Shown here: piece by piece, positions 5,531 to 61,842 of the stretch | Numbering within the stretch: the stretch's first letter is position 1 | Layout: each line of letters starts with the position of its first letter | NCBI GenBank assembly: GCA_035293285.1 | Contig: DATDOM010000046.1 | Coordinates: 5,982 to 69,981, forward strand | Direction of reading: 5' to 3' | Origin: Candidatus Nanoarchaeia archaeon | GTDB taxonomy: Archaea > Nanobdellota > Nanobdellia > Woesearchaeales > GW2011-AR4 | Length of the DNA: 64,000 nucleotides | Program-made: the position numbers and the translations under genes | Notes under the pieces: generated by a model | The model's database searches: none | Told to the model about the DNA's origin: nothing | Seen by the model: only the letters and a program-made list of their open reading frames with translations

Positions 5531-6424
5531 TTATTTCCCAAATTTCTGGAACACAAGCAAATCCTCGTTAGTCAACTTCTGTCCTTTCCTTATTTTTTCA
5601 TTGACTATTTCTTCCTTTGACCTTAGAATAGACTCTTCATCCATCTTTCTCTGTTCCCTTCTTTCATAATCCATCTTGTCAAGTTCATCTCGTGCCTGGT
5701 TCATGTTTTTAAGATTGCCTTTTAGAGTTGAATTTGCTTCTGAAAACTTGCTTTTGTATTCCACAAATTTTTTCAGTGCTTCTTCTTCCTGCGGCTTTAC
5801 ACTGTCAATTTCGGCTGAAAGCTTTAGAATCTGCTCGTGAAGCAATTGTCCTGCTTTTGCTTTTTCCTGAATCTGCCTGTGAATGTCATTTGCATCTTTC
5901 CTGATTTTGTCAAGCTCGCCCCTTTCCTGCCTTGATTTTCGGCTTGATGCCATCGAATCCCTTATACTGTCATAAGCCTTTCTAAGCTGCTTGATTTTTT
6001 TCATCAATGCCTGCTCCTTGTCAAAAGACATAGGCTCAGTCTCCATTTTAAACTCAAGCTGTTCCATTTGCGCCTTGAGTTTTCCAGGAGATTCCCTGAA
6101 TTCCATAGGCCTCTGAGGAGCTATTACTTCTTTTTCAGGCTGCTTGGCCTTTAGTTCCTTTGATTTTTCAGAAAGCTGCGCATTAAACGCATCTCTTTTG
6201 ACTTTAAGGTCTTTGACTTCCTGAGTTATTGCATCCCTTTGAGTCTTAAGCTCCTTTATTTTATGGATGTCTGATTTAATCTTAGTAGAAATCTCCTGCT
6301 TCTTGGAGTACCAGGATTCCTTCTCATTGTCAAGCTGGTTAAGGTTCTCCTTTAATTTGGAAACCTCGTCCCTGCTCTTTTTGAGGCCTTCAACTACCTC
6401 CTTCTTTCGTTCTTGCGATGTCAT
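5531..6424 (-). CDS. archaeal coiled-coil protein (COG1340-like)
   Basis: 297 aa of K/E/Q-rich heptad-like sequence throughout. Confidence 0.5.
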   Translation of the reverse strand: MTSQERKKEVVEGLKKSRDEVSKLKENLNQLDNEKESWYSKKQEISTKIKSDIHKIKELKTQRDAITQEVKDLKVKRDAFNAQLSEKSKELKAKQPEKEVIAPQRPMEFRESPGKLKAQMEQLEFKMETEPMSFDKEQALMKKIKQLRKAYDSIRDSMASSRKSRQERGELDKIRKDANDIHRQIQEKAKAGQLLHEQILKLSAEIDSVKPQEEEALKKFVEYKSKFSEANSTLKGNLKNMNQARDELDKMDYERREQRKMDEESILRSKEEIVNEKIRKGQKLTNEDLLVFQKFGK

Positions 6425-6458
6425 AAAAATTAAATGAAATAAAATTCATTCCCAGCAA

Positions 6459-6776
6459 TTAACCAAACAGTGCGCCAAGGCCTGCTGCTGCAGATTCTTC
6501 TGACTTCTTCTCATCAGCTGCTTTCTTAGCGTGGTCTGCTTTTGCATCATGTTTATGCTCGTGTCCGCCTGCTGCCGGAGCAGCTGCTACAACCTGAGCT
6601 ACTGATGCCTTTTCAATTGCCTCATCTATATTTACTCCTTCCAAAGCTGCTACAAGCGCCTTAGCCCTTGCCTCGTCAACTTTAACGTGAGCTGCCTCAA
6701 GCACTTTTTTCACTGAAGCTTCATCTACTTTCTGCCCTGCTTTGTGGAGCAACATTGCTGCGTATACGTATTCCAT
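6459..6776 (-). CDS. rpl12: 50S ribosomal stalk protein P1 (L12)
   Basis: [19 protein letters not shown]..., an Ala-rich hinge and a C-terminal GLGALFG. Confidence 0.9.
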
Positions 6777-6803
6777 TTTAACCTCCTAAGTTTATTTTAA
6801 GTT

Positions 6804-7157
6804 TTAATTTAATTCTTTAAGCGTTAACCCTTTAGCTTTATACGTATCTTTAAACCCACTAAATTGTGATTCATCAATATAAAAAATTAATTTTGTCCTT
6901 GAAATGTATTCCATTACTTCATCTGATTCGGGAGATAATGGCACACTACTATACCCTCTAAAGGTTTTTTGATCAACATTTAACGCGTAACCGCCGTGTC
7001 CTTCTCCAATTGAATCCACTCTTAAAACCCAACACTGGCCACTTGGTTTAATTACCACAGCTTCAAGCATGCCGAAAGTTTTACTAATTTGTCTTAATCT
7101 ATCGGAAAGACATGTTTCGTCCTTTGGGATTTTTGAATAATATATTGTTTCTGCCAT
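6804..7157 (-). CDS. hypothetical protein, paralog of 8039-8329, inserted between P0 and P1
   Basis: MAETIYYSKIPKD... shares its N-terminal YYSKIxKD block with the other insert. It starts 4 nt after the P0 stop. Confidence 0.5.
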   Translation of the reverse strand: MAETIYYSKIPKDETCLSDRLRQISKTFGMLEAVVIKPSGQCWVLRVDSIGEGHGGYALNVDQKTFRGYSSVPLSPESDEVMEYISRTKLIFYIDESQFSGFKDTYKAKGLTLKELN

Positions 7158-7161
7158 TTTA

Positions 7162-8037
7162 TTATAAGTTTCCTGCTGATTTCACGCCTGACATCTGATT
7201 ATGAGCTTTTGCTAAAAGCAATTCCATTATCCCTGTATCAAAGATATTTTGTGAAACTCCAAGTGATTTTGCGTCGTTATGAGCTTTTCCTACAAGCAAG
7301 CTGATGTTGTCTTTTGTTGGGTAAGCAATGAAGTTTGCCAAGTTAAATGCCCATCTTGAAGCGTTTGACAAGTTCTGCATGAACTGCTTTTCATCAACTG
7401 ACAAGACTTCTCTGCCATAGATTATGCCGTTTTCATAAACTGCAACAAGCCCAAGGCCAACTTCCATAGGCTGTATTCCAAGCCTTGTCAAAATCTCTGC
7501 AACCTTTGGCTTGATTTTCTCGCCTGCCTTTACAACAACAACATCTTCCTTGATTGCTATTTTCCCGCCTTCAACGCCGGCTTTTATTCCGACCATTGCA
7601 AGCTCTCCGATTATTGGGCCGGGAGCAAACGATGTTGCGCCTTTGTTTACCATGATGTCGCTTATTGCAGTTTGTCCTGCTTTTGCAAATGCAGGTGACT
7701 TGCTCTTTTGTAAAGTCCTGCTTAATTTGAAAGGATTTCCCTTTGTGAATATTAATGCAGGCATGCCGCCAAGGTGAGCTTCAATCTTCTCAATTCCTTT
7801 TTTTGAGGATTTTGTCTGTTCAATTGCAAGCTTGATTAGCCTCCTCTTTGTCATTGTAAGAACGCAGTCTTTTCTTAACTGCGCCCTCATTCCCTGTAGA
7901 GCAGAAGCTCCAAGGTTTTCCATATTGACTACTCCGATTATCGGGTATTCGTGGATTAGCTTGACAAGATTACTTACAACATCTTTCTTGTATTGCGCGA
8001 CGTGAGCTTCGTGTTTTAATTCTGTCATTTGAGTCAT
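7162..8037 (-). CDS. rpl10: 50S ribosomal protein uL10 (P0)
   Basis: 291 aa with ...YPIIGVVNMENLGASALQGMRAQLR..., positioned between L1 and P1. Confidence 0.9.
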   Translation of the reverse strand: MTQMTELKHEAHVAQYKKDVVSNLVKLIHEYPIIGVVNMENLGASALQGMRAQLRKDCVLTMTKRRLIKLAIEQTKSSKKGIEKIEAHLGGMPALIFTKGNPFKLSRTLQKSKSPAFAKAGQTAISDIMVNKGATSFAPGPIIGELAMVGIKAGVEGGKIAIKEDVVVVKAGEKIKPKVAEILTRLGIQPMEVGLGLVAVYENGIIYGREVLSVDEKQFMQNLSNASRWAFNLANFIAYPTKDNISLLVGKAHNDAKSLGVSQNIFDTGIMELLLAKAHNQMSGVKSAGNL

Positions 8038-10534: not shown

Positions 10535-10692
10535 GGGGCAGTTACGCCTCGCCATTTCGCTCGGCATACATCGTTTCTCAATCCAGCACATTCGCCACAT
10601 TTCGGGCGAAAATTTTTCCGTGGGAACTTTAGGTTCCACTTGATTCCGTCGTTAACTCGCGGAAGGGTTATCAGTGTTCATCCACGTCGTTA
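10535..10692 (+). repeat. composite GC-rich hairpin module (A-type fragment + inverted B module + TCAGTGTTCATCCAC box)
   Basis: 10565-10612 aligns with 42785-42835. 10614-10680 is the reverse complement of 43066-43120, with a compensated hairpin (gtgggaac/gttccac versus gtgaggc/gcctcac). Confidence 0.6.
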
Positions 10693-10778
10693 GTTATTGC
10701 AATAAATCGAGGCAAATTTTAGTGCCAGTCAAAAATTTGCCGAGTGTAAATATGGTCGCTCAAAGTGACCTATTGAAA
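10693..10778 (+). repeat. two-hairpin repeat, short form (copy E1)
   Basis: TTATTGCAATAA palindrome, CGAGG, H1 ggcaaatttt/aaaatttgcc (loop agtgccagtc), CCGAGTG, H2 ggtcgc/gtgacc. Confidence 0.75.
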
Positions 10779-12630: not shown

Positions 12631-12659
12631 AAAAGCACTCAGTGTTCATCCACTCGTCA

Positions 12660-12742
12660 ATTATTGCAATAAATCGAGGCAAATTTTAGTGTAAATCAAA
12701 ATTTGCCGAGCGAAACCATTGTCGTAAAACGACCGATTAAAA
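12660..12742 (+). repeat. two-hairpin repeat, short form (copy E2)
   Basis: TCAGTGTTCATCCAC box upstream; TTATTGCAATAA; H1 ggcaaatttt/aaaatttgcc (loop agtgtaaatc); H2 gtcg/cgac. Confidence 0.75.
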
Positions 12743-17954: not shown

Positions 17955-18171
17955 CTGAATGTTCCGAGGCAAATTTTAGTGCCAGTCAAAATTTGCCGAG
18001 CGAAATTATTGAAAATTCAAAGAATTTTCCGGTTTAATTTCATCTATCATTGAAAAATAACATTTAAACTGCGGCAATAACGGAAAACATTAAACTAAAC
18101 TCATTAAACCTTTCACAATAATTATTAGAAAAATAAAATTTAAAAAATAAATAAAAATTACAACAAATAAA
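17955..18171 (+). repeat. two-hairpin repeat, long form (copy E3) with AT-rich promoter-like tail
   Basis: CCGAGG, H1 17968-17997, H2 gaaaattc/gaattttc 18011-18029, GGCAATAAC 18073-18081, AACATTAAAC boxes, TTTAAAAAATAA about 25 nt before the ispG ATG. Confidence 0.75.
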
Positions 18172-20492: not shown

Positions 20493-21655
20493 AACGAATC
20501 TCAATTTTAGGCTCGACAGGCTCAATAGGGACACAGTCCCTTGATGTAATAAGAAAATACCCTGAAAAGTTCAAAGTTGTAGGGCTGACTGCAGGAAATA
20601 ATTCTGAATTATTGATTAAGCAGATAAAGGAATTTAAGCCAAAAGCAGTTGCAATAATGGACAAAAGCAAGGTTGCAGATTTGCTCAATTTCTCCTCATG
20701 CCAGGTTTTTTCAGGAACAGAAGGGCTTAACAAAATTGCGTCATTAAGCGAAGCAGACACTGTGATTAATTCTCTTGTCGGCTCGTCAGGAGTAGAGCCC
20801 ACTTACAGTGCAATAAAAGCCAAGAAAAATATTGCTTTGGCAAACAAGGAAACTTTGGTTGCTGCAGGCTCGGTAATAATGGAAGAGGCAGAAAAAAACA
20901 ATGTAACGGTAATGCCGATTGATTCTGAACACAGCGCAATATTCCAGTGCCTTAACGGCGAAAACAAGAAAGAAGTTGAAAAAATTATAATAACATGCTC
21001 AGGCGGCCCTTTTAAGAATTTTTCAGGTGAAGAGCTAAAAAATGTTACTGCAAAAGATGCATTAAAGCATCCCACCTGGAATATGGGCGCAAAAATAACA
21101 ATTGATTCGTCCACTTTGATGAACAAAGGATTTGAAGTGATTGAAGCCCACTGGCTTTATGGAACAAATTATGACAAAATTGAAGTTGTAATTCATCCGC
21201 AAAGCATAATACACTCGCTTGTAGAGTTCAGGGACAAGTCAGTAATTGCCCAGCTTGGAATTCCGGACATGAGAATACCAATACAATACGCCCTCTCTTA
21301 TCCAGAAAGGCTTGAAAGCAGTTCTGAATCCCTGAGCCTTTCAAAAATAAAATCGCTCGAATTCAAGGAGCCTGATTTTGAAAAATTTCCTTGCCTAAAA
21401 TATGCGTTTGAAGCAGGAAAAACAGGGGGAACAATGCCTTGCGTTATGAATGCAGCAAATGAAATTGCGGTTCACGCTTTCCTAAATGATAAAATCAGCT
21501 ATCTTGACATTGCAATTATAATAAAAAAAATGATGGATGACCATAACCTGATAAAAAATCCAAATTTGCAGGAGATTCTTGAAGTGGACAGAAAAGTGAA
21601 GGAAGAAACAAAAAAAGTAATTGAAAATGGGGAATTTAATCGTCAAAAAAGTTAA
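20489..21655 (+). CDS. dxr: 1-deoxy-D-xylulose-5-phosphate reductoisomerase
   Basis: ILGSTGSIGTQSLDV, LANKETLV, IDSEHSAIFQCL, HPTWNMGAKITIDSSTLMNKG. Confidence 0.95.
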   Translation: MKRISILGSTGSIGTQSLDVIRKYPEKFKVVGLTAGNNSELLIKQIKEFKPKAVAIMDKSKVADLLNFSSCQVFSGTEGLNKIASLSEADTVINSLVGSSGVEPTYSAIKAKKNIALANKETLVAAGSVIMEEAEKNNVTVMPIDSEHSAIFQCLNGENKKEVEKIIITCSGGPFKNFSGEELKNVTAKDALKHPTWNMGAKITIDSSTLMNKGFEVIEAHWLYGTNYDKIEVVIHPQSIIHSLVEFRDKSVIAQLGIPDMRIPIQYALSYPERLESSSESLSLSKIKSLEFKEPDFEKFPCLKYAFEAGKTGGTMPCVMNAANEIAVHAFLNDKISYLDIAIIIKKMMDDHNLIKNPNLQEILEVDRKVKEETKKVIENGEFNRQKS

Positions 21656-21878
21656 TGCAATGTTCCGAGGCAAAATTTTATTGGCAGGAAAAATTTTACC
21701 GAGCGAAACTATTGAAAATTCGAAGAATTTTCCGGTTTTAAACCGATGTGGATTAAAAATAAACTACAGCAATAACGAACGAACATTAATTAATAGCATT
21801 AAACCGACGGCATTGAGATTTTACAATAAGGAAATTTAAAAAATAAAAGACGGAAGAAATGATAAACTAAACCAAAAA
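21651..21878 (+). repeat. two-hairpin repeat, long form (copy E4)
   Basis: Begins at the dxr stop codon (gTTAATGCAATG). H1 21669-21700 (ggcaaaatttt/aaaattttacc), H2 21714-21732, GCAATAAC 21769-21776, GAAATTTAAAAAA upstream of ispDF. Confidence 0.75.
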
Positions 21879-24018: not shown

Positions 24019-24211
24019 GTCAATGCCATAAATCGAGGCGAAAATTAGTGCTATTCAATTTTCGCCGAGTGAAAATATTGAAAATTCGCAGAATTTTCCA
24101 GTTGAACGTCATTATGCATTAAAACAATAATAACTAACGACGGCAATAACTGACAACATTAAACTAATAACATTGAAAATTTCACGACAATAAACTAAAT
24201 CACAATAAAAA
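24019..24211 (+). repeat. two-hairpin repeat, long form (copy E5)
   Basis: H1 24037-24066 with compensated stem ggcgaaaatt/aattttcgcc, H2 24080-24098, GGCAATAAC 24142-24150, AACATTAAAC boxes. Confidence 0.75.
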
Positions 24212-25656: not shown

Positions 25657-25965
25657 TTTATTCCTCCGATTTATGTTTTAGTTTTTATTTTGATATATTC
25701 TTAGTTTTTATTTTTTTAGTTTTTTATATTTTATTATTTCGTCCTTCGTTTTTTTTAAATTTCGTTATTGTAAAACCTTAATGCCGTAAGTTTAATGTTA
25801 ATCGTTATTGTTCGTCCGTCAATGCCAGTTCGTCATTGTCGTTGTTATTTATTGTAGTTTTAATGTTTAATGACTTTCAATCGGAAAATTCTTCGAATTT
25901 TCAATATTTTCACTCGGCGAATTTTGACTTACACTAAAATTCGCCTCGATTTATTGCATTAACTC
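25657..25965 (-). repeat. two-hairpin repeat, long form (copy E6, inverted)
   Basis: Read on the minus strand: GTTAATGCAATAAATCGAGG, H1 ggcgaatttt/aaaattcgcc (25916-25945), H2 gaaaattc/gaattttc. The tail carries CATTAAAC boxes and GAAATTTAAAAAAA and leads to the rps15 start. Confidence 0.75.
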
Positions 25966-38482: not shown

Positions 38483-39256
38483 ATGAAGTTTAATCTAAGT
38501 AAAATGCCACTATATTTCATCGGTCTTGGATTAAGCAACGAAAAAGACATCACAGTCAATGGTCTTGAAGCTGTAAAAAAATGTGATATTGTCTATCTAG
38601 AATACTACACTTCCGTTTTAAACACAACAAAGGAAAAACTCGAAGAATTCTACGGAAAAAAAATAATTCTGGCGCCAAGGCAAAAAGTAGAGTCTGATAA
38701 TAATGAAATTATAGACAACGCAAAAACAAAAAATGTTGCTTTTTTGGTTGCAGGAGACGCAATGGCAGCAACAACCCACATTGATTTAATGCTAAGGGCA
38801 AAAAAAGAAAAAATCAGGTGCCATGTTATCCATAATGCCTCAATTATAAATGCAGTAGGAATTACTGGACTCCAGTTATACAAATTCGGAAAAACAACAA
38901 GCATTCCGATGGAAAACGAGAATGTTGAAAGCCCATATGATGCGCTAAAAGACAACTTAAGCCTTGGAATGCACACATTATTCCTGCTTGACTTAAAGCC
39001 CGATGAAAACAAGTTCATGACAATAAATGACGCAATAAGGTATTTACTCAAAGTTGAGCTTAAAAGAAATAATAAAATATTTACAGAAAAAACTTTGTGT
39101 ATTGGCCTTGCAAGGGTTGGAAGTGAAAGCCAGTTGATTAAGGCAGGAACTGCAAAGGAGCTTGTAAAACATGATTTCGGAAAGCCTGTTCATTGCCTCA
39201 TAGTTCCTGGCAAAATGCACTTTATGGAAGAGGAAGCATTGAAGATTTACAGCTAA
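38483..39256 (+). CDS. dph5: diphthine synthase
   Basis: MPLYFIGLGLSNEKDITVNGLEAVKKCDIVYLEYYTS...FLVAGDAMAATTHIDL; the second ATG at 38504 may be the true start. Confidence 0.9.
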   Translation: MKFNLSKMPLYFIGLGLSNEKDITVNGLEAVKKCDIVYLEYYTSVLNTTKEKLEEFYGKKIILAPRQKVESDNNEIIDNAKTKNVAFLVAGDAMAATTHIDLMLRAKKEKIRCHVIHNASIINAVGITGLQLYKFGKTTSIPMENENVESPYDALKDNLSLGMHTLFLLDLKPDENKFMTINDAIRYLLKVELKRNNKIFTEKTLCIGLARVGSESQLIKAGTAKELVKHDFGKPVHCLIVPGKMHFMEEEALKIYS

Positions 39257-39293
39257 AACGTAATAATGCCGTATTTATTCATCTCGTTTCTAA

Positions 39294-39381
39294 AATATTG
39301 CAATATTCCGAGGCAAAATTTAGTGGCAGTCAAATTTTGCCGAGTGTATCTAAAGTTGTCTCAAAGGCAACGGATTTAAGG
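39294..39381 (+). repeat. two-hairpin repeat, short form (copy E7)
   Basis: AATATTGCAATATT perfect palindrome, CCGAGG, H1 ggcaaaattt/aaattttgcc (39312-39341), H2 gttgt/gcaac. Confidence 0.75.
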
Positions 39382-39388
39382 TAATACC

Positions 39389-39555
39389 GGGACCCGTCCT
39401 AAATCTCGCTCCGCTCGGGTTATTGCCAAGCTTGGCTCCTTCATCTCAAATCGCAGGCTGACATTGCCCGGATGGCGCGTCCCCTTTGTCAGCTTTTCAT
39501 CCGTACAAATCATGGCCTCGCAAAAAGGCAATAACCTGCATTTAGGACGGGGCCC
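39389..39555 (-). ncRNA. structured RNA candidate, C-type (small paralog of 42984-43267)
   Basis: Minus-strand read: P1 gggccccgtcctaaat/atttaggacgggtccc, P2 ggttattgcc/ggcaataacc, gctgaca/tgtcagc helix. It shares the tttttgcgaggcc, cgatttgagatgaa and aataacccgagcg blocks with the larger copy. Confidence 0.6.
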
Positions 39556-39570
39556 AAATATCAACTGGTT

Positions 39571-40221
39571 TTAAGAGCTGCAAAGTTTATACAATAAGTC
39601 AAATGATTTCTGGAGCTTGTCTTCCTCAATAATCAATATGTGCTCGTTCGAGGAAATAAGCGCGTCAATTATGCTTATCCCGTTCTCTGCAAGCTCGTTG
39701 TATATTATTGAAAATACACCTGGTGTTTTCTTTAGTATTCTTGGGTAATTGATTTCAATCATCCCAACTTTTTTGTTTTCCTCAAGTATCAGTTCCTTTG
39801 GGAATGATGATTTGACTTTGTCAAGGTTTTTCTGGTCTATGACTATAGTAAGCGCTTCCGAGCCTTCAAGCACCCTTATTATGTCATGGTCCTGAAAATC
39901 AAGCATCCGGTCAGGCCTGCCAAGCTTGGTTTTTACAGAATCAGTCCTCTTCAATAATAAAGAAGACATTTTGGTCTTGATTGATATTCGAGCCTGCTTT
40001 AGTATTGCGTGTACTGAATTTGACTCCTCACTTTTTTTGATGCTGGTTTTGTATCTTCTTAATGCGCTTATTACTGAATCAGGGCTTGCATCAAGCTTTT
40101 GGGTCTGGATAATATATTTTGCAAGGCTCCTTATGTTTATTATTCCTCTTGAAATGTCTTTTTTGAGCGCAATGTCAGTATCAACAAATTTCCAGACAAA
40201 TTCTGCGATATTTTTTGCCAT
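39571..40221 (-). CDS. ACT-domain regulatory protein (COG2150-like)
   Basis: C-terminal GVFSIIYNELAENGISIIDALISSNEHILIIEEDKL is ACT-like. Confidence 0.45.
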   Translation of the reverse strand: MAKNIAEFVWKFVDTDIALKKDISRGIINIRSLAKYIIQTQKLDASPDSVISALRRYKTSIKKSEESNSVHAILKQARISIKTKMSSLLLKRTDSVKTKLGRPDRMLDFQDHDIIRVLEGSEALTIVIDQKNLDKVKSSFPKELILEENKKVGMIEINYPRILKKTPGVFSIIYNELAENGISIIDALISSNEHILIIEEDKLQKSFDLLYKLCSS

Positions 40222-40336
40222 AGGATGGCATAAATATGGGTCTGTTTTTAAATTTTTTTGCTAAATATGACATTTTTATCAGAATTTTGGCATATATGTC
40301 ACAATCGTTTTAAAGGTATTTTGTTTCCAAAATGTT

Positions 40337-41347
40337 ATGGAAAATGACAAAAAGAAAGTGCTGATAGCAACTGGAACTCCGTTTGATTTGGATGTAAGAG
40401 TCAGGATGGCAAACACCCTGATGGCAAACGGGCTTGATGTTGCAGTTCTGGAAAATTATCAGGGCTGGCAGCTTGAGGAAGAAATATCGTCTGCCAACTA
40501 TCTGATTGTAAGAAGCGACAAAATCGACAGACAACTGATTGACCGTGCTTCAAATCTGGAATTGATTGTCAGGGCAGGCTCTGGAATCAACACAATCGAT
40601 GTAGATTATGCCCAACTAAAAGGGATCGAAGTTCAAAACACAAACGGGGCAAATGCAGTCTCTGTCGCTGAGCTTGCAGTCGGAATGATGGTTACTCTTG
40701 CAAGGGATTTGCACATGCAAAATTACCAGGCAGGCAATCCTGCCAAACAAAACGGTCATTTTGAGATGTTTGGCAAGAAAATAGGTTTGCATGGATTTGG
40801 TGCAGTTGGAGTGCAGGTTGCAAGGAGAGCAAAGGCTTTTGGATTGAATATATTTGCTTATGACACAAATCCGGAAATTGATTATAATCCGCCCGGGATG
40901 GAAAAATCATTTGGATTTGATTCCGTAACTGGCGCAAGAAATATTGAAGATGTGTATAGAAATTCGCAGTTTGTATCAATTCATGTTCCTTTGACAGATG
41001 AGACAGAAGGCAAAGTAAACTACGAATTAATTTCACTTATGAGGTCAAATGGAATTCTCATAAACACTGCAAGGCCGGAAATAGTAAATTACGGAGATTT
41101 GGCAAGAATTATGGAAGAAAATCCTAAATTCAAATACGCAGCAGATGTAAGCAAGGACGAATTTAGGGAATTTGCAGAAAACAACGGGCTTGCAGAATTC
41201 AAAAGCAGGCTTTTTATCACAAACAAGATAGGGGCACAGACCTATGAGGCAAACCACAATGCCGCAATTCAGGCCGCAAATAAAGTTATAGAATACAAAC
41301 AAAGAATGGATAGAGTCATAGTTGCAGACAGCACGTTCCTTCAATAG
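40337..41347 (+). CDS. D-isomer-specific 2-hydroxyacid dehydrogenase (phosphoglycerate dehydrogenase-like)
   Basis: GKKIGLHGFGAVGVQVARRAKAFG (NAD fold), ...SIHVPLTDETEGK..., INTARPEIV. Confidence 0.8.
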   Translation: MENDKKKVLIATGTPFDLDVRVRMANTLMANGLDVAVLENYQGWQLEEEISSANYLIVRSDKIDRQLIDRASNLELIVRAGSGINTIDVDYAQLKGIEVQNTNGANAVSVAELAVGMMVTLARDLHMQNYQAGNPAKQNGHFEMFGKKIGLHGFGAVGVQVARRAKAFGLNIFAYDTNPEIDYNPPGMEKSFGFDSVTGARNIEDVYRNSQFVSIHVPLTDETEGKVNYELISLMRSNGILINTARPEIVNYGDLARIMEENPKFKYAADVSKDEFREFAENNGLAEFKSRLFITNKIGAQTYEANHNAAIQAANKVIEYKQRMDRVIVADSTFLQ

Positions 41348-41408
41348 CCAAAATATCATTTGAAGAAACATTTATAAACAAAGCAACTCTTCTCAAGCTT
41401 GATTTTAG

Positions 41409-41645
41409 GTGATAAATTTGATGGAACAATCTAGGCCACTGGACGCTTTAAACAAAGCAAGAGACAAAAGAGTAATAGTAGAACTAAAGAACAGCAGGAC
41501 ATACATAGGAAAGTTAAAATCATTTGACATTCACGTTAATGTAGTTCTTGAAGATGCCGAAGAAATGGTAAACGGCACAATGACAAGAAAGCTTGGAGTT
41601 GTCTTTGTAAGAGGAGACACAATAACTGTAATCTCAACTGAATAA
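41409..41645 (+). CDS. Sm-like (LSm) archaeal protein
   Basis: RPLDALNKARDKRVIVELKNSRTYIGKLKSFDIHVNVVLEDAEE...VFVRGDTI. Confidence 0.85.
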   Translation: MINLMEQSRPLDALNKARDKRVIVELKNSRTYIGKLKSFDIHVNVVLEDAEEMVNGTMTRKLGVVFVRGDTITVISTE

Positions 41646-41659
41646 ATTCTGGTGCTAAA

Positions 41660-41827
41660 ATGAAGGGAACACCGTCAATGGGAGTAAAGTCTGGCAAGAA
41701 GAATATGATACATTGCAGGCGATGCGGCCAAAGGACGCTTAATCTTTCAGGAAGAGTATGCGCCTCATGCGGCTTTGGAAAAAGCGCAAGGATGCGTTCT
41801 TACACCTGGTGCAAGAAAAGGAAGTAA
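41660..41827 (+). CDS. rpl37e: 50S ribosomal protein L37e
   Basis: Own translation (55 aa, below track cutoff): MKGTPSMGVKSGKKNMIHCRRCGQRTLNLSGRVCASCGFGKSARMRSYTWCKKRK. Sm-L37e is a conserved archaeal gene pair. Confidence 0.85.
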   Translation: MKGTPSMGVKSGKKNMIHCRRCGQRTLNLSGRVCASCGFGKSARMRSYTWCKKRK

Positions 41828-41870
41828 ATAAAAGCACTAAACTTAAATATATTCTAAACATACGTCCTTT

Positions 41871-42431
41871 ATGGAGCGAAGAGTAAAGGACAGGAACATT
41901 CTCGATAAGTTTTGTCTGGATTTTTGCAAAGTTGTCGAAAAACACTGCAAATACATAATTGTGTCTGGATTTGTGGCTATTGCTTCAGGCAGAACAAGGG
42001 GAACTGAAGATATTGACATCATAATTGAGAAACTAAGCCAATCAAAGTTTGCCAAACTTCATAAAAGCCTTATAAAAAATGAGTTTATTTGTATTCAAGG
42101 CAGCAACTCTAATAATTTGTATAATGACTACCTTAAAGACAATATTAGTATAAGGTATACTTACAAAAAGTTGTTGCTTCCCGAAATGGAACTAAAATTC
42201 TCCAAAGACTCTCTTGATGATTACCAGCTTAAAACAAGAGTTAAGCTCAAATTAACTGGATTGGATTTGTGGTTTAGCTCAGTCAACGTAAACATTGCAT
42301 TTAAAGAAGAGCTTTTGAAATCGGATAAGGATTTAGAGGATGCAAGGCATCTGAGAATTGTCTATTCTGAGATGATTAACAATAACGAGATAGATAAAGT
42401 TAAATCTATGATAAAGGAGCAGAGATTATGA
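41871..42431 (+). CDS. nucleotidyltransferase-fold protein
   Basis: ASGRTRGTEDIDIIIEKL fits the minimal NTase G[SG]...D.D motif. Confidence 0.45.
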   Translation: MERRVKDRNILDKFCLDFCKVVEKHCKYIIVSGFVAIASGRTRGTEDIDIIIEKLSQSKFAKLHKSLIKNEFICIQGSNSNNLYNDYLKDNISIRYTYKKLLLPEMELKFSKDSLDDYQLKTRVKLKLTGLDLWFSSVNVNIAFKEELLKSDKDLEDARHLRIVYSEMINNNEIDKVKSMIKEQRL

Positions 42432-42649
42432 GAAATGAACATATATCCCAAGTTGAAAGATGGGCTGACTACGTAAAAAACAACCCAACTCAGTGGAAAA
42501 AACAGCACACTAAATTCATAAATGCTCAATTTGAAAAGCACAGGAATTTTGTAAAGTCAATCCTTAAGCAAAGTAATGGATTTGAAAAACTTGTTAAAAT
42601 ATATAAAATTAAAAATATTGAAGAATACAGAAAGTCTTTTGGTCGTTGA
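42428..42649 (+). CDS. small helical hypothetical protein
   Basis: 73 aa; its start overlaps the stop of the NTase gene (ATGA). Confidence 0.3.
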   Translation: MRNEHISQVERWADYVKNNPTQWKKQHTKFINAQFEKHRNFVKSILKQSNGFEKLVKIYKIKNIEEYRKSFGR

Positions 42650-42743
42650 AATATTTACCTTATTTTAGATTATTAAAAGACTGCGAGAAAAATCTAGGCC
42701 TCGTCATTTGACCTATTTTGAAGATAAATTTTCAGACTAAGAT

Positions 42744-42955
42744 AAAAAAGACGCTGAATTATATTTAGGCCGCACCATTAGTGCGGCGTACATTGCTCAT
42801 CCAATCCGCACAATTCGCCCCATTTGGGCGAAAATCGTTTGTTTTTATTTTTACAAACAAATTCAAGGAGTCACCTTCGCAATGCAACGAATCAACCGTA
42901 TTATGTACGCGGCCTAATGCAGGCCGCCTATCTTTGCGGAGCGGATTTAAAATTA
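42744..42955 (+). repeat. A-type hairpin module ending in a TATA-like box
   Basis: Collinear with 61645-61842: AAAAAAGACG, covarying hairpins (ccgcac/gtgcgg vs cagccgc/gcggctg; gcggcc/ggccgc vs gcgcgcc/ggcgcgc), conserved ttcgccc/gggcgaa hairpin, ...TTCGCGGAGCRG-TTTAAAA. Confidence 0.6.
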
Positions 42956-42983
42956 GTAAAAGAAACCTTAAAAAATAATTTCC

Positions 42984-43267
42984 GGCTCTGTCCGGAATAT
43001 GGTTATTGCCTTTTTGCGAGGCCGTGATTTTCCGGCTGAATAGCTGACAAAGGGGATACTCCACAACCCTTCCGCGAGTTGACGGCGGAATCAAGTGAGG
43101 CCTAAAGCCTCACGAAAAACAAGAATATTCGAGGGCTTGAGCGAAGCGAAACCCTAAATGCGTGTCAACTGAGCGTAACCAGTTGCGGGAAATGTCAGCC
43201 CACGATTTGAGATGAATGAGCCGAGCTTGCCAATAACCCGAGCGAATGCGAGATTCCGGACAGAGCC
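42984..43267 (+). ncRNA. structured RNA candidate, C-type (large paralog, ~130-nt internal extension)
   Basis: P1 ggctctgtccggaat (42984-42998)/attccggacagagcc (43253-43267), 15 bp perfect. P2 ggttattg/caataacc, gctgaca/tgtcagc. The extension at 43057-43187 has agttgac/gtcaact and gtgaggc/gcctcac helices. Confidence 0.6.
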
Positions 43268-43413
43268 ATAATTTCCGTAACCTTTATAAATAAACCAGCC
43301 ATCCCAGATAAGATAACAAGCCCGAGTTCGAGAGAGCGCTTTAGGGTTTAACGAAAGTTAAATTTCGCTATTTCTCTCGCGGTAATACTTAAAAACAAGA
43401 GTCAAATTAAAAA

Positions 43414-43896
43414 ATGCCACCAGAACAGCCAAAACAGGAATTAAAATATTTCGTCAGGATTGCAAACACTGACCTTGACGGAAACAAGCAGATAGGAAAT
43501 GCCCTTCTAAAAATCAAGGGAATAGGTTTCATGTTCTCGAATGCAATTTTAAAGACAGCCAAAATTGACCCAATAAAAAAGGCAGGCTTCATGACTGACG
43601 CTGAAGTTGCAAAAGTTGACGAAGTAATAAAAGAGCCTTCAAAATTCAAGATTCCTGTGTGGATGTTTAACAGGAAAAGAGACCCAGAAGACAGCCAAGA
43701 CAAGCATTTAATCGGCTCAAACTTGACATTCACTCAGGACAACGACATAAAGATGATGAAAAAGATAAAGTCCTACAAGGGAATAAGGCACTCATTCGGT
43801 CTTCCAGTCAGGGGACAAAGAACCAGGTCAAACTTCAGAAAGAACAAAGGAAAAGTAATGGGCGTCAAGAGAAAAGAAGGCGCAAAGTCAAAGTAA
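43414..43896 (+). CDS. rps13: 30S ribosomal protein uS13
   Basis: KYFVRIANTDLDGNKQIGNALLKIKGIGFMFSNAILK...GIRHSFGLPVRGQRTRSN. Confidence 0.9.
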   Translation: MPPEQPKQELKYFVRIANTDLDGNKQIGNALLKIKGIGFMFSNAILKTAKIDPIKKAGFMTDAEVAKVDEVIKEPSKFKIPVWMFNRKRDPEDSQDKHLIGSNLTFTQDNDIKMMKKIKSYKGIRHSFGLPVRGQRTRSNFRKNKGKVMGVKRKEGAKSK

Positions 43897-43928
43897 ATCA
43901 AAATAAAAACTAATTTAACACTGACAAA

Positions 43929-44474
43929 ATGGGAGATCCAAAAAAACACAGAAGGAAATTTTCAAAGCCGAGCCATCCCTGGCAAAAGGAAAGGATTGAG
44001 GCAGAGAAAATAATCATGAAAGATTACGGCCTGAGGAGAAAGCAGGAAATCTGGAAAATGAGCTCATTGCTTCAGACGTTCTTAAACAGGGCAAAAACAA
44101 TCATCGCGCAAAGAACTGTCCAGTCAGAAATCGAGCAAAAGCAGCTTTTGACAAGGCTAATCAAGCTTGGATTAATCAAGCCGAATGCAAAAGTCGAGGA
44201 TGTATTAAATCTTACAATGAAAGACATGCTTGAAAGAAGGCTTCAGACAATTGTAGTAAGAAAACACATCTCAAAGTCAATGCTTCAGGCAAGACAATTG
44301 ATAACTCACGAGCACATTGCAGTTGGCGCAAGAAAAATAACTTCACCGTCATATCTTGTAAGCACAAGCGAAGAATCTCACATTAAATTAATAGACCCGA
44401 TAAATTTGGAAACGCCTCCGCCGGCAGCGCCTGAAAAGGAAAAGGCGGTTGAAGTAAAAGCAGAGGCTAAATAA
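43929..44474 (+). CDS. rps4: 30S ribosomal protein uS4
   Basis: [27 protein letters not shown]...[11 protein letters not shown]. Confidence 0.9.
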
Positions 44475-45709: not shown

Positions 45710-45746
45710 GCCCACGGAGTTAGGACCATTATGCCTCCTGCGTTTT

Positions 45747-45832
45747 GCGGGGGTGGCGGAGCCTGGTCAAACGTGCTAGCTTGAGGGGCTAGTCCCTTAG
45801 TGGGTGCGCGTGTTCGAATCACGTCCCCCGCA
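45747..45832 (+). tRNA. tRNA-Leu (anticodon GAG), intron-less
   Basis: GCGGGGG-TG-GCG..CGT-G-CTAGC-TTGAGGG-GCTAG-TCCCTTAGTGGGTGC-GCGTG-TTCGAAT-CACGT-CCCCCGC-A. Confidence 0.9.
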
Positions 45833-46025
45833 TTAAAATCACAAACCAAAATCAAAAAATAAAATGGCAATAATCAAATTATCAAAAACAAGGCAGAGGC
45901 TTTATGCCCCTTCAAGCTTGACGAGTTCTTTTTGGTCAAGCTTTTACTTGAAAATCAAAGATTTTCAAGTTCCCAAAAATCGCTTGCGATTTTTTAGGAT
46001 CTTGTTAAGAAAAAGGTTGTAGAAA

Positions 46026-49351: not shown

Positions 49352-49540
49352 AATCATTGCAATATTTCGAGGCAAATTTTAGTGCTAATCAAAATTTGCC
49401 AAGTGAAATTCTTGAAAATTCGGAGAATTTTCCGTTTAAATTGCAAAAATACAAAACAGGCAATAAAAAACGGCAATAACGAGTAACATTGAATTAGTCC
49501 AATTAAACTTTGAAATAAAAAAGCCAGAAATTAAAAATAA
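49352..49540 (+). repeat. two-hairpin repeat, long form (copy E8)
   Basis: TCATTGCAATATTTCGAGG, H1 49371-49400, GCCAAG variant, H2 49414-49432, GGCAATAAC 49472-49480, AACATTGAAT / AATTAAAC boxes. Confidence 0.75.
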
Positions 49541-59467: not shown

Positions 59468-59486
59468 AGGTGTTACTAGTTTAAAT

Positions 59487-59572
59487 TAATGTAATAAACT
59501 GAGGCAAAATTTTAATGGCAGAAGAAATTTTGCCGAGTGTAATTATGGTCGCCCAAAGCGACGGATTGAAGT
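59487..59572 (+). repeat. two-hairpin repeat, short form (copy E9)
   Basis: TTAATGTAATAAACTGAGG, H1 ggcaaaattt/aaattttgcc (59503-59534), H2 ggtcgc/gcgac. Confidence 0.7.
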
Positions 59573-59657
59573 AAAAAATAAAAGTAAGAACCTCTAAAAT
59601 ATTAAGTAGAGGACGTGCCCAAAAATGAACAAATTGAGACTATTGCAAGTTAACCCT

Positions 59658-59893
59658 TATTCTTCCTCAACTCTGTGACCCAAAGACACCGAAGTTCAAG
59701 ATTACCGCTGCTTCCTTCCAGACCTGACGGATTTTCAAGAGCTTTAGCCCCTTGAGGCAGAGTCTCAACGTCGGAATAAGGCTGGCAACAATCACAATTG
59801 CCGCTTTTTGAGCTTCACCGCGCCTAAAGCACATCTGCGCTGACAGGAGAGTGCTGACCTCCCGGCAAAGTCCTCCGTAGGTTAGGAAGATAA
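59658..59893 (-). ncRNA. ffs: signal recognition particle RNA (7S/SRP RNA)
   Basis: Minus-strand read contains GTCAGGTCTGGAAGGAAGCAGC (59707-59728), the universal helix-8 motif. The ends pair: tcttcctaac/gttgaggaaga. Confidence 0.8.
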
Positions 59894-59930: not shown

Positions 59931-60133
59931 TGAGTGAAACCAGAAGGATTCACACACGGGTTTTCTTTGTGAAAACCCTACTCACAAAGGTAAAATCCAC
60001 ACTGCGCATGGAGTTTCCCTCTGCATTCGGTGTTCATCCACTTTACGTAAAGTTATTGAAATATTCGAGGCAAATTTTAGTGCCATTCAAAATTTGCCGA
60101 GTGTAAATATTGTTGTCAAACAACCGATTTAAG
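59931..60133 (+). repeat. GC-rich hairpin module + two-hairpin repeat, short form (copy E10)
   Basis: gggttttc/gaaaaccc hairpin, TCGGTGTTCATCCAC box, GTTATTGAAATATTCGAGG, H1 60069-60098, H2 gttg/caac. Confidence 0.7.
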
Positions 60134-61551: not shown

Positions 61552-61644
61552 TTCTCATCTTGTTAGTTAAACTTTTAAATTGCAGGTTTTATTCATTCAA
61601 AATCACAAATAATCAAATTTAACAATATCAAGTTCGCATAAAAA

Positions 61645-61842
61645 TAAAAAAGACGAAGGATGTTAGGCAGCCGCCAATAACTGCGGCTGCATTCATTGAA
61701 CACAAAATTCGCACATTCGCCCCATTTTGGGCGAAAGTTGATAAAAAGTACCAAGTAAACAATTGAAACCCGCATTGCGGCGGGTTGTAAGATAAATGCG
61801 CGCCATTGTGGCGCGCCTAACATTCGCGGAGCAGGTTTAAAA
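61645..61842 (+). repeat. A-type hairpin module ending in a TATA-like box ~28 nt upstream of the tRNA-like gene
   Basis: Collinear with 42744-42955; gttaggc/gcctaac long-range pair; ends CGCGGAGCAGGTTTAAAAAAACC. Confidence 0.6.

Follow-up and report, generated by a model that had tools for sequence, protein, structure and literature searches.

What is the 284-nt noncoding element that lies in the intergenic region directly 5' of the ribosomal protein S13 gene of a DPANN archaeon: the gene of a new structured RNA, or a piece of DNA that inserted there? The DNA in which we addressed this question, referred to here as the window, is a 64-kb chromosomal segment of contig DATDOM010000046.1 from the Woesearchaeota/Nanoarchaeota group, and the element occupies positions 42984-43267. 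A first-pass annotation had proposed a structured RNA candidate, and this was half right: the element does have a conserved secondary structure, but it is carried by a mobile sequence and not by a fixed RNA gene. [quoted passage not shown] We draw this conclusion because the large copy is flanked by a target-site duplication, because it belongs to a large family whose members have 9-bp duplications of their own, and because autonomous partners share the same termini. What appeared to be a new RNA gene is thus re-filed as a transposon and should not be annotated as a housekeeping RNA.

Within the 284 nt of the large copy and the 167 nt of the small one only spurious, overlapping open reading frames (ORFs) were found. 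The terminal repeats of the large copy are complementary at 15 of 15 positions, in agreement with the perfect pairing of 42984-42998 with 43253-43267 described earlier. Just outside both arms stand 9-bp direct repeats, ATAATTTCC, identical at 9 of 9 positions and followed by the S13 promoter; the first-pass annotation had missed both features. It had instead pointed to a TATA-like box upstream of the element. That box (ATTTAAAATT, 42944-42953) is present, but its role as the element's own promoter is unsupported; the TATA box that matters lies downstream, is part of the S13 operon and marks the insertion target. The parts of the large copy, with the helices of its fold named P1 to P4, and the smaller family member found in the window are as follows.

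42975-42983, no strand: left 9-bp target-site duplication, ATAATTTCC, identical to 43268-43276.
42984-43000, plus strand: left terminal inverted repeat GGCTCTGTCCGGAAT followed by AT, the 5' arm of P1; 42984-42998 is the perfect 15-bp complement of 43253-43267.
43001-43010, plus strand: 5' arm of P2, GGTTATTGCC, pairing with 43229-43238.
43016-43022, plus strand: 5' half of the tandem-GA helix P2b, GC-GA-GGC, opposite GCC-GA-GC at 43220-43226.
43043-43049, plus strand: 5' arm of P3, GCTGACA, pairing with 43193-43199.
43057-43187, plus strand: extension of ~130 nt (131 nt) in the apical loop, with several hairpins, absent from the small copy.
43193-43199, plus strand: 3' arm of P3, TGTCAGC.
43220-43238, plus strand: 3' half of P2b, GCC-GA-GC, then the 3' arm of P2, GCCAATAACC, at 43229-43238.
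43239-43252, plus strand: P4 mini-hairpin, CGAGC-GAAT-GCGAG, adjoining the right terminal repeat.
43253-43267, plus strand: 3' arm of P1, made by the right terminal inverted repeat ATTCCGGACAGAGCC.
43268-43276, no strand: right 9-bp target-site duplication, ATAATTTCC.
43277-43290, plus strand: promoter of S13-S4-S11-RpoD, consisting of GTAACC, which resembles a transcription factor B recognition element (BRE), and the TATA box TTTATAAA, directly after the right duplication.
39389-39555, minus strand: smaller family member of 167 nt (165 nt, 39390-39554, by covariance model) with variant terminal repeats GGGCCCCGTCCTAAAT and ATTTAGGACGGGTCCC.

Members of the family end in the terminal inverted repeats GGCTCTGTCC…GGACAGAGCC. 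Across all fetched loci, the 9-mers on either side agree at 8-9 of 9 positions for 77 elements with these ends, and the duplicated 9-mers are unrelated from one element to the next. Modal element lengths are 144 and 163-166 nt, longer variants also occur, and copies within one genome are near-identical. A scan of a genome collection with the pattern CGAGATTNNGGACAGAGCC returned at least 120 loci, nearly all from Woesearchaeota or Nanoarchaeota, and among the matches listed some metagenome-assembled genomes (MAGs) held more than 20 copies. A first genome scan with an exact 28-base interior pattern found nothing, the pattern being too specific.

The termini also bear on the closing helix, which had been explained by selection on RNA pairing rather than by recognition of a terminal repeat by a transposase. 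This explanation does not survive the comparison, since the outer 10 bp are invariant across genomes and identical to the ends of autonomous IS5-family elements, and more than 70 copies have 9-bp duplications on both sides; covariation between copies is confined to the inner 5-6 bp of the repeats. Nor is the closing helix of the paralog unrelated in sequence and equally complementary, as had been thought. Its arm GGGCCCCGTCCTAAAT matches the large-copy arm at 11 of 16 positions, its repeats are complementary at 15 of 16 (one mismatch), and about four pairs differ between the two closing helices by compensatory change.

The S13 locus itself was compared in 80 related genomes, from which the S13 neighborhoods were fetched. 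A scan of these 80 loci for the terminal repeats found complete elements only in L039, where the element is inverted, and in L061; in L022 the contig ends within a copy at this site. All of these copies have the outer termini GGCTCTGTCC…GGACAGAGCC. The two complete ones are each bracketed by a 9-bp direct repeat of their own, which is AACTTTTCC for L061 and GGTTGTTTT for L039. When the region upstream of S13 in L001 was read directly, an uninterrupted site, AAAAAATCA-GTAACC-TTTTTAAA, was found, and it corresponds to the sequence on the right of the insertion in L022, whose left end is missing where the contig stops. Because the duplication differs at each site, comparison of these sequences indicates independent insertions at the S13 promoter of the window, of L061 and of L039, rather than one element that was inverted in place.

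The presumed source of mobility is an autonomous insertion sequence. At 6046-6949 of locus L191 lies a 904-bp element with the same ends as the MITE and the duplication TATGCAATC. Its 289-aa ORF matches the Pfam domain DDE_Tnp_1 (PF01609) at 4.9e-10, above the cut-off, and the NCBIfam model for IS5 family transposases, NF033579, at 2e-36, and the protein contains a Y-2-R-3-E-6-K signature (YHRRELIESGNSSIK). A search with this transposase returned 928 homologues (E up to 1e-10), some of them named "IS5 family transposase [Nanoarchaeota]" and many of them on contigs of about 0.9-1.3 kb. The autonomous copies are ~0.9 kb long with a single ORF for a DDE transposase of 269-295 aa. The outer 10 bp of the repeats are identical to those of the MITE in L191 and L206-L211, and the repeats are variant in L201 and L212-L217. 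The copies in L201, L207/L208 and L217, with repeats of the identical or the variant kind (GGCGCTGTCT…, GGCGTTGTCC…), are flanked by perfect 9-bp duplications. The interior of the insertion sequence is unrelated to that of the MITE. The ISfinder criteria for the IS903 group of the IS5 family are a 9-bp duplication, GGC termini and a length of ~0.95-1.15 kb; at 893-904 bp (L206/L207, L191) the elements are slightly short of this range. The transposase would mobilize MITE copies in trans, making a 9-bp staggered cut.

A conserved hairpin (e.g., AACCCCUUGCAGAGCAAGGGGGUU) is also found in the autonomous copies, in the stretch from the left repeat to the start codon of the transposase; after it a second stem encloses a GAGG Shine-Dalgarno-like loop right before the AUG (L201 about 1445-1500, L212 about 1440-1500 and L191 6070-6124). 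These leader hairpins probably control transposase translation.

Two copies of the family were counted in the window by covariance model. The small copy scored 124.8 bits (E = 6e-34). The existence of this paralog was confirmed, with the correction that it lies on the opposite (minus) strand, and the two blocks it has in common with the large copy are 91% and 87% identical. Both copies contain the pairs GGTTATTG(CC)/CAATAACC and GCTGACA/TGTCAGC and long identical blocks, as had been reported, and each gives a better fold than shuffled sequence does (z-scores, -4.6 and -3.2). The covariance model gave the large copy just 11.6 bits, as it cannot span the 131-nt insert, and its assignment to the family relies on identity with the sequence of the small copy and on the common ends. 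Variant terminal repeats are also found in L102 (5054-5216) and L083 (1687-1848); in the pairs GGCTTTGCAGAGAAT/ATTTTCTGCAAAGCC, AGCTTAGTAGAAAA/TTTTCTACTAAGCT and, in the window, GGGCCCCGTCCTAAAT/ATTTAGGACGGGTCCC both ends are altered in concert. This suggests either sub-lineages matched to different transposases or selection on the pairing of P1.

The extension at 43057-43187, ~130 nt in place of the apical hairpin of the small copy, was likewise as first described. Part of it (56 nt, 43065-43119) does recur inverted at 10614-10669 with 84% identity, related extensions (TGTCAACYGAGCGTAACCAGTTG plus a covarying hairpin) are present in L161 and L092, and other family members carry insertions in the apical loop too. 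A module of 25-26 nt within it, AACCCTTCCGCGAGTTGACGGCGG(AA), is found in the window at 43063-43088 and at 10640-10669 (minus strand) and elsewhere at L022 2588-2613, L030 8205-8229, L015 2745-2769 and L014 8403-8422. It matches at 95-100% across genomes whose S13 proteins are merely ~75% identical to that of the window, and direct reading of L022 placed it right after the rpoD stop codon, 5' of tRNA-Leu.

The interior of the MITE folds into a three-way junction, a plan that both window copies fit. The terminal repeats form P1; P2 runs via a conserved tandem G·A motif (C-GA-G…C-GA-G) to P2b, P3 and a 4-bp apical hairpin; and P4, a mini-hairpin of the form CGAGC-loop-GCGAG, adjoins the right repeat. 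The C-GA-G…C-GA-G motif is conserved in both P2b and P4, and in the large copy the stem of P4 pairs as C-G, G·A, A·G, G-C and C-G. Nearly all family members have P4, with a loop that varies and a stem that covaries (e.g., CGAGUC-GAA-GACGAG). Covariation in P2 and in the apical helices was already apparent in the consensus from a plain MAFFT alignment of 31 diverse ~165-nt members, and a covariance model was then used to obtain an alignment of 59 sequences, from which 56 distinct sequences were counted. In this model-fitted alignment standard pairs made up 94.1% of cells, compared with 75.5% in shuffled controls and 33-43% when the partners were slid. Compensatory change was seen in 31 of 39 pairs, including 10/10 in P2, 7/7 in P3 and 10/15 in P1, where it is concentrated at inner repeat positions 11-12. 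Cells with a double change numbered 388 versus 110, and at a single pair of P2 up to 31 of the 56 sequences had both sides changed. Since G·U pairs outnumber A·C pairs by 74 to 28, one strand is the selected one. These data show that the interior of the element is not junk and that a selected fold exists; its working form would be a single strand that has folded.

The core is shared by a second MITE family, which has other repeats, GGCGTTATTGAAARGCTC, and a duplication of 8 bp (L157 and L117); it is also found in L094 without the terminal repeats of the first family. Copies of the second family lie at L157 6932-7190 (minus strand) and L117 about 7260-7476, with others in L082, L085, L171 and L189. 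They have the duplication CAGAAATC and combine the P2-P3-apical core with a P4-like GAGCG…GAGCG hairpin, and their outer helix differs (GACCAGCAC/GGTGCTGGTC).

The S13 promoter directly beside the right duplication proved to be typical of where the family inserts. Flanks were reconstructed for 75 non-redundant insertions, and 58 of these have a TATA-like octamer whose start is 15-17 nt away from an end of the element: on the 5' side in 29, on the 3' side in 27 and on both in 2. Counts at other offsets were mostly 0-3, with some spill-over at the neighboring offset of 18 (9 and 5). The layout is a 9-bp duplication, a 6-nt BRE-like spacer and a TATA box, and the gene reads away from the element. 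When empty sites were oriented on the TATA box, no signal was seen upstream, and the profile consisted of the duplication, R-A-A-A-N-N and then TTTATAAA; one A of the R-A-A-A spacer is present at 93%, although this position was not conditioned on. This profile is that of an archaeal BRE/TATA promoter. An ORF of at least 80 aa is directed away from the element on 51 of the 59 TATA-bearing sides, and the commonest ORF start lies 30 nt past the beginning of the TATA box, a distance to be expected of leaderless mRNAs. The same promoter geometry is seen at the four autonomous copies whose duplications are intact (L191, L201, L207/L208 and L217). Element orientation relative to the adjacent promoter is random (29 versus 27), and no orientation bias was seen with respect either to the gene of that promoter or to the gene on the other side. 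Statistically, these data show that the cut is placed immediately upstream of a BRE/TATA core promoter, with the element in either orientation. More tentatively, what the transposase reads may be either the sequence of the promoter or the bend in its DNA when TATA-binding protein (TBP) and transcription factor B (TFB) are bound.

Taken together, these results lead us to propose a transposon that combines nucleotide-precise integration 5' of core promoters, with the 9-bp staggered cut adjoining the BRE at 6 nt from the TATA box and with the promoter or its TBP/TFB complex being recognized, and a structured cargo: a ~130-nt three-way junction with two C-GA-G…C-GA-G motifs, under compensatory evolution and shared by MITE families with different transposases. 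As a joint proposition this is tentative, and we place it slightly short of evenly balanced. To our knowledge, neither nucleotide-precise promoter integration nor conserved structured cargo has been described for prokaryotic transposons. Our search of the literature on archaeal insertion sequences found no account of promoter-anchored targeting; one survey mentions only a high MITE density in a Woesearchaea genome.

Several observations weigh against parts of this interpretation. The NF033579 score of the L191 protein, 125.9 bits, is under the curated cut-off of 140, and the putative placement in the IS903 group rests on duplication length, size and GGC ends. The target pattern is one-sided, unlike the palindromic preference of the IS903 type, for which WTTYA-N9-TRAAW has been reported (PMC2577343). 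By tblastn no transposase of this IS5-type family was found in the window, so both window copies may be immobile relics. At the small copy the flanking 9-mers agree at only 5 of 9 positions and no TATA box adjoins, and for these reasons it is probably an older insertion. The covariation counts come from a model-fitted alignment and are biased towards structure; the MAFFT alignment was already covarying. Finally, the random orientation of the elements relative to neighboring genes counts against an RNA that relies on read-through transcription.

How the fold acts is the part of the interpretation with the closest rival. We consider an RNA cargo likelier than single-stranded or cruciform DNA, although our confidence in it is evenly divided. 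A cargo independent of the transposase is favored by the reuse of the core in another transposon family and by the strand asymmetry, whereas a read-through-dependent RNA is weakened by the random orientation and by the lack of a conserved internal promoter, none of which was seen in the elements. These last two observations speak for the alternative that the fold acts as DNA, either as a hairpin or cruciform or while single-stranded during replication, under element-level selection. Such a fold could juxtapose the two terminal repeats where the shortness of the element prevents looping, or serve as a recognition platform, and thereby increase mobilization. That the terminal repeats themselves form P1, with their inner 5-6 bp covarying, fits this alternative, as does the occurrence in the family of P4 loops such as GCGAAGC and GCGAAAGC; in Hirao's work these two sequences are reportedly unusually stable DNA mini-hairpins. 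However, DDE transposases of the IS4/IS5 families use double-stranded ends, and we know of no requirement for single-stranded DNA among them. The presence of the same core in L094 and in a second MITE family with other ends and another duplication length is easier to understand if the cargo is transposase-independent, and the asymmetry between strands (the G·U excess over A·C, and G·A motifs on one strand) is unlike what a symmetric cruciform would produce. We find a fold acting as DNA the less probable of the two. A different explanation of the complementarity is that it is a by-product of foldback-MITE formation, by duplication or fusion of insertion sequence ends, followed by recent descent and with no structural selection. 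Many MITEs are indeed imperfect palindromes (reviews, including PMC10969869), and copies within one genome are near-identical here as well. Across genomes, however, the helices stay paired as their sequences change, in P2 in up to 31 of 56 sequences; the non-complementary G·A/A·G dinucleotides are strictly conserved within helices; and the MITE interior has no relation to that of the insertion sequence. We regard a by-product as improbable.

A fixed, free-standing noncoding RNA gene with a paralog, whose closing helix serves RNA pairing only and whose promoter is the box at 42944-42953, would account for the real covariation in P2, P3 and P4 and for both folding z-scores. An A/T-rich box does lie 31-40 nt upstream, and the Rfam scan that the first-pass annotation had proposed as a check gave no family match: with Rfam 15 at gathering thresholds nothing in the whole window matched the element, the only hit being a signal recognition particle (SRP) RNA elsewhere, and a scan of 38500-44000 at E up to 10 gave chance-level matches only. 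This reading does not fit with more than 70 copies flanked by 9-bp target-site duplications, with termini identical to those of transposase-bearing insertion sequences, with tens of copies per genome in some MAGs, or with a sporadic distribution among close relatives in which both orientations occur at the same S13 site. The upstream box, moreover, is outside the duplication and so belongs to the sequence that preceded the insertion. As the sole explanation an RNA gene is refuted by the duplications and the autonomous insertion sequences, and we hold it to be very improbable in any form. Least probable of all is a role in cis for the S13-S4-S11-RpoD operon, as a regulatory leader or an invertible switch. 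What prompts this idea is that in the window and in L061, L039 and L022 the promoter of S13 has the element directly on its 5' side, inverted in L039 relative to the others; but the element is upstream of the TATA box and hence outside the S13 transcript, the scan of 80 related S13 loci found just two complete elements and a truncated one, and most family members are beside unrelated genes. A switch is further contradicted by the different duplication at each S13 insertion, which marks these as independent events, and no recombinase gene is adjacent.

Other candidates were tried and rejected. RNase P, SRP, C/D, H/ACA and hammerhead RNAs gave no model match, and the junction lacks the single-stranded core of a hammerhead. 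For a retron, an integron attC site, replication-origin boxes or a dif site, neither a reverse transcriptase nor an integrase is nearby, and length and composition do not fit.

The surroundings of the elements contain further features. Genes of the window include those for FtsZ, diphthine synthase and an S13-S4-S11-RpoD-tRNA-Leu-L18e-L13-S9 cluster, in which the S13 ORF occupies 43414-43896 and encodes a protein 76-78% identical to its counterparts in Woesearchaeota MAGs. The tRNA-Leu(GAG) is at 45746-45833 (plus strand), between rpoD and the L18e gene, and the archaeal SRP RNA (Rfam RF01857, 106.8 bits) occupies 59607-59877 (minus strand). A conserved motif, AGCCCGAG…AGAGCGYUUUAGGGUU…CGCU…UUCUCGG, is present in the S13 operon's 5' leader (43300-43413) and also upstream of S13 in L001, L002, L005, L008, L017, L027, L028, L030, L039 and L061. 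Two pairings are apparent in it (GCCGAG/CUCGGC, GAGCG/CGCUU), and the leader is a candidate for a ribosomal-protein leader; the MAFFT-aligned S13 leaders, too variable in length, yielded no RNAalifold consensus. An inverted part of this motif (CGAAACCCTAAATGCG) is contained in the insert of the large MITE copy.

A second intergenic repeat family has at least 10 copies in the 64 kb and is built on a 10-bp hairpin, GGCAAATTTT…AAAATTTGCC, with the compensatory variants GGCGAATTTT/AAAATTCGCC and GGCAAAATTT/AAATTTTGCC. The hairpin is flanked by a C-GA-G…C-GA-G motif of the MITE type and then by a second small hairpin. Copies were located at 10671-10758, 12639-12724, 17965-18009, 21650-21712, 24024-24078, 25904-25964 (minus strand), 39296-39348, 49356-49408, 59486-59552 and 60027-60113, and one of them adjoins the small MITE copy. 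Another short repeat, with the hairpin TCGCCCCATTTGGGCGA or TCGCCACATTTCGGGCGA, is found at 42800-42840, 10580-10620 (minus strand) and 61641-61736. One copy of this type lies in the 330-nt intergenic region 5' of the large MITE, a region that also has a stable hairpin, GCGGCC-TAATGC-AGGCCGC, at about 42901-42928.

The promoter data provide a computationally well-supported case of a prokaryotic DDE transposon that picks its target relative to an archaeal BRE/TATA promoter. If true, this would offer a simple system in which to study how transposases read transcription-initiation complexes, and it would account for the many insertions that are tolerated in a DPANN genome of very small size. The insertion sites also flag genuine promoters in uncultured archaea. 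That the interior of a MITE is under structural selection and serves another MITE family as well suggests a mobile nucleic-acid module with a function.

Among known systems, the IS903 group is the nearest to the autonomous partner, with which it shares DDE_Tnp_1, Y-2-R-3-E-6-K, a single ORF, a length of ~0.9 kb and a 9-bp duplication. The ends of both start with GGC, being GGCTTTGTTGAATAAATC in IS903 and GGCTCTGTCC here. The systems differ in that the host here is a DPANN archaeon and the transposase scores under the NCBIfam equivalog cut-off, and in that the target here is one-sided (9 bp, a 6-nt BRE, TATA), whereas that of IS903 is palindromic (PMC2577343). Within the fold, the sheared-type tandem G·A/A·G pairs flanked by Watson-Crick pairs, which occur twice per element, resemble the kink-turns and k-loops bound by archaeal L7Ae; a canonical kink-turn is not favored, as its defining 3-nt bulge, which separates a canonical stem from the tandem G·A pairs, is not evident here, and those pairs are set between C-G and G-C.

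With regard to integration, the eukaryotic element Ty3 offers a partial analogy. Ty3 is a long terminal repeat retrotransposon with an integrase and integrates at Pol III start sites via TFIIIB. By analogy, the elements described here may use a similar "safe haven", as they insert at a fixed distance from a TBP-type core promoter and leave promoter and gene intact; they differ in being an archaeal DDE insertion sequence and its MITE, for which TBP/TFB may play a part and direct recognition of BRE/TATA is equally possible. As short elements, they resemble the Correia/NEMIS sequences of Neisseria and the ERIC/IRU sequences of enterobacteria, which are likewise short and noncoding, have terminal repeats and duplications, occupy intergenic sites that are often just 5' of genes, and fold into long hairpins. 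Those hairpins are simple imperfect palindromes, and the effects reported for them are promoters and sites for RNase III or RNase E (PMC10969869). In contrast, the elements of this archaeal family form a three-way junction with tandem G·A motifs and strong covariation between genera, their core is reused in a second MITE family, and their insertion position is fixed to the nucleotide relative to a promoter.

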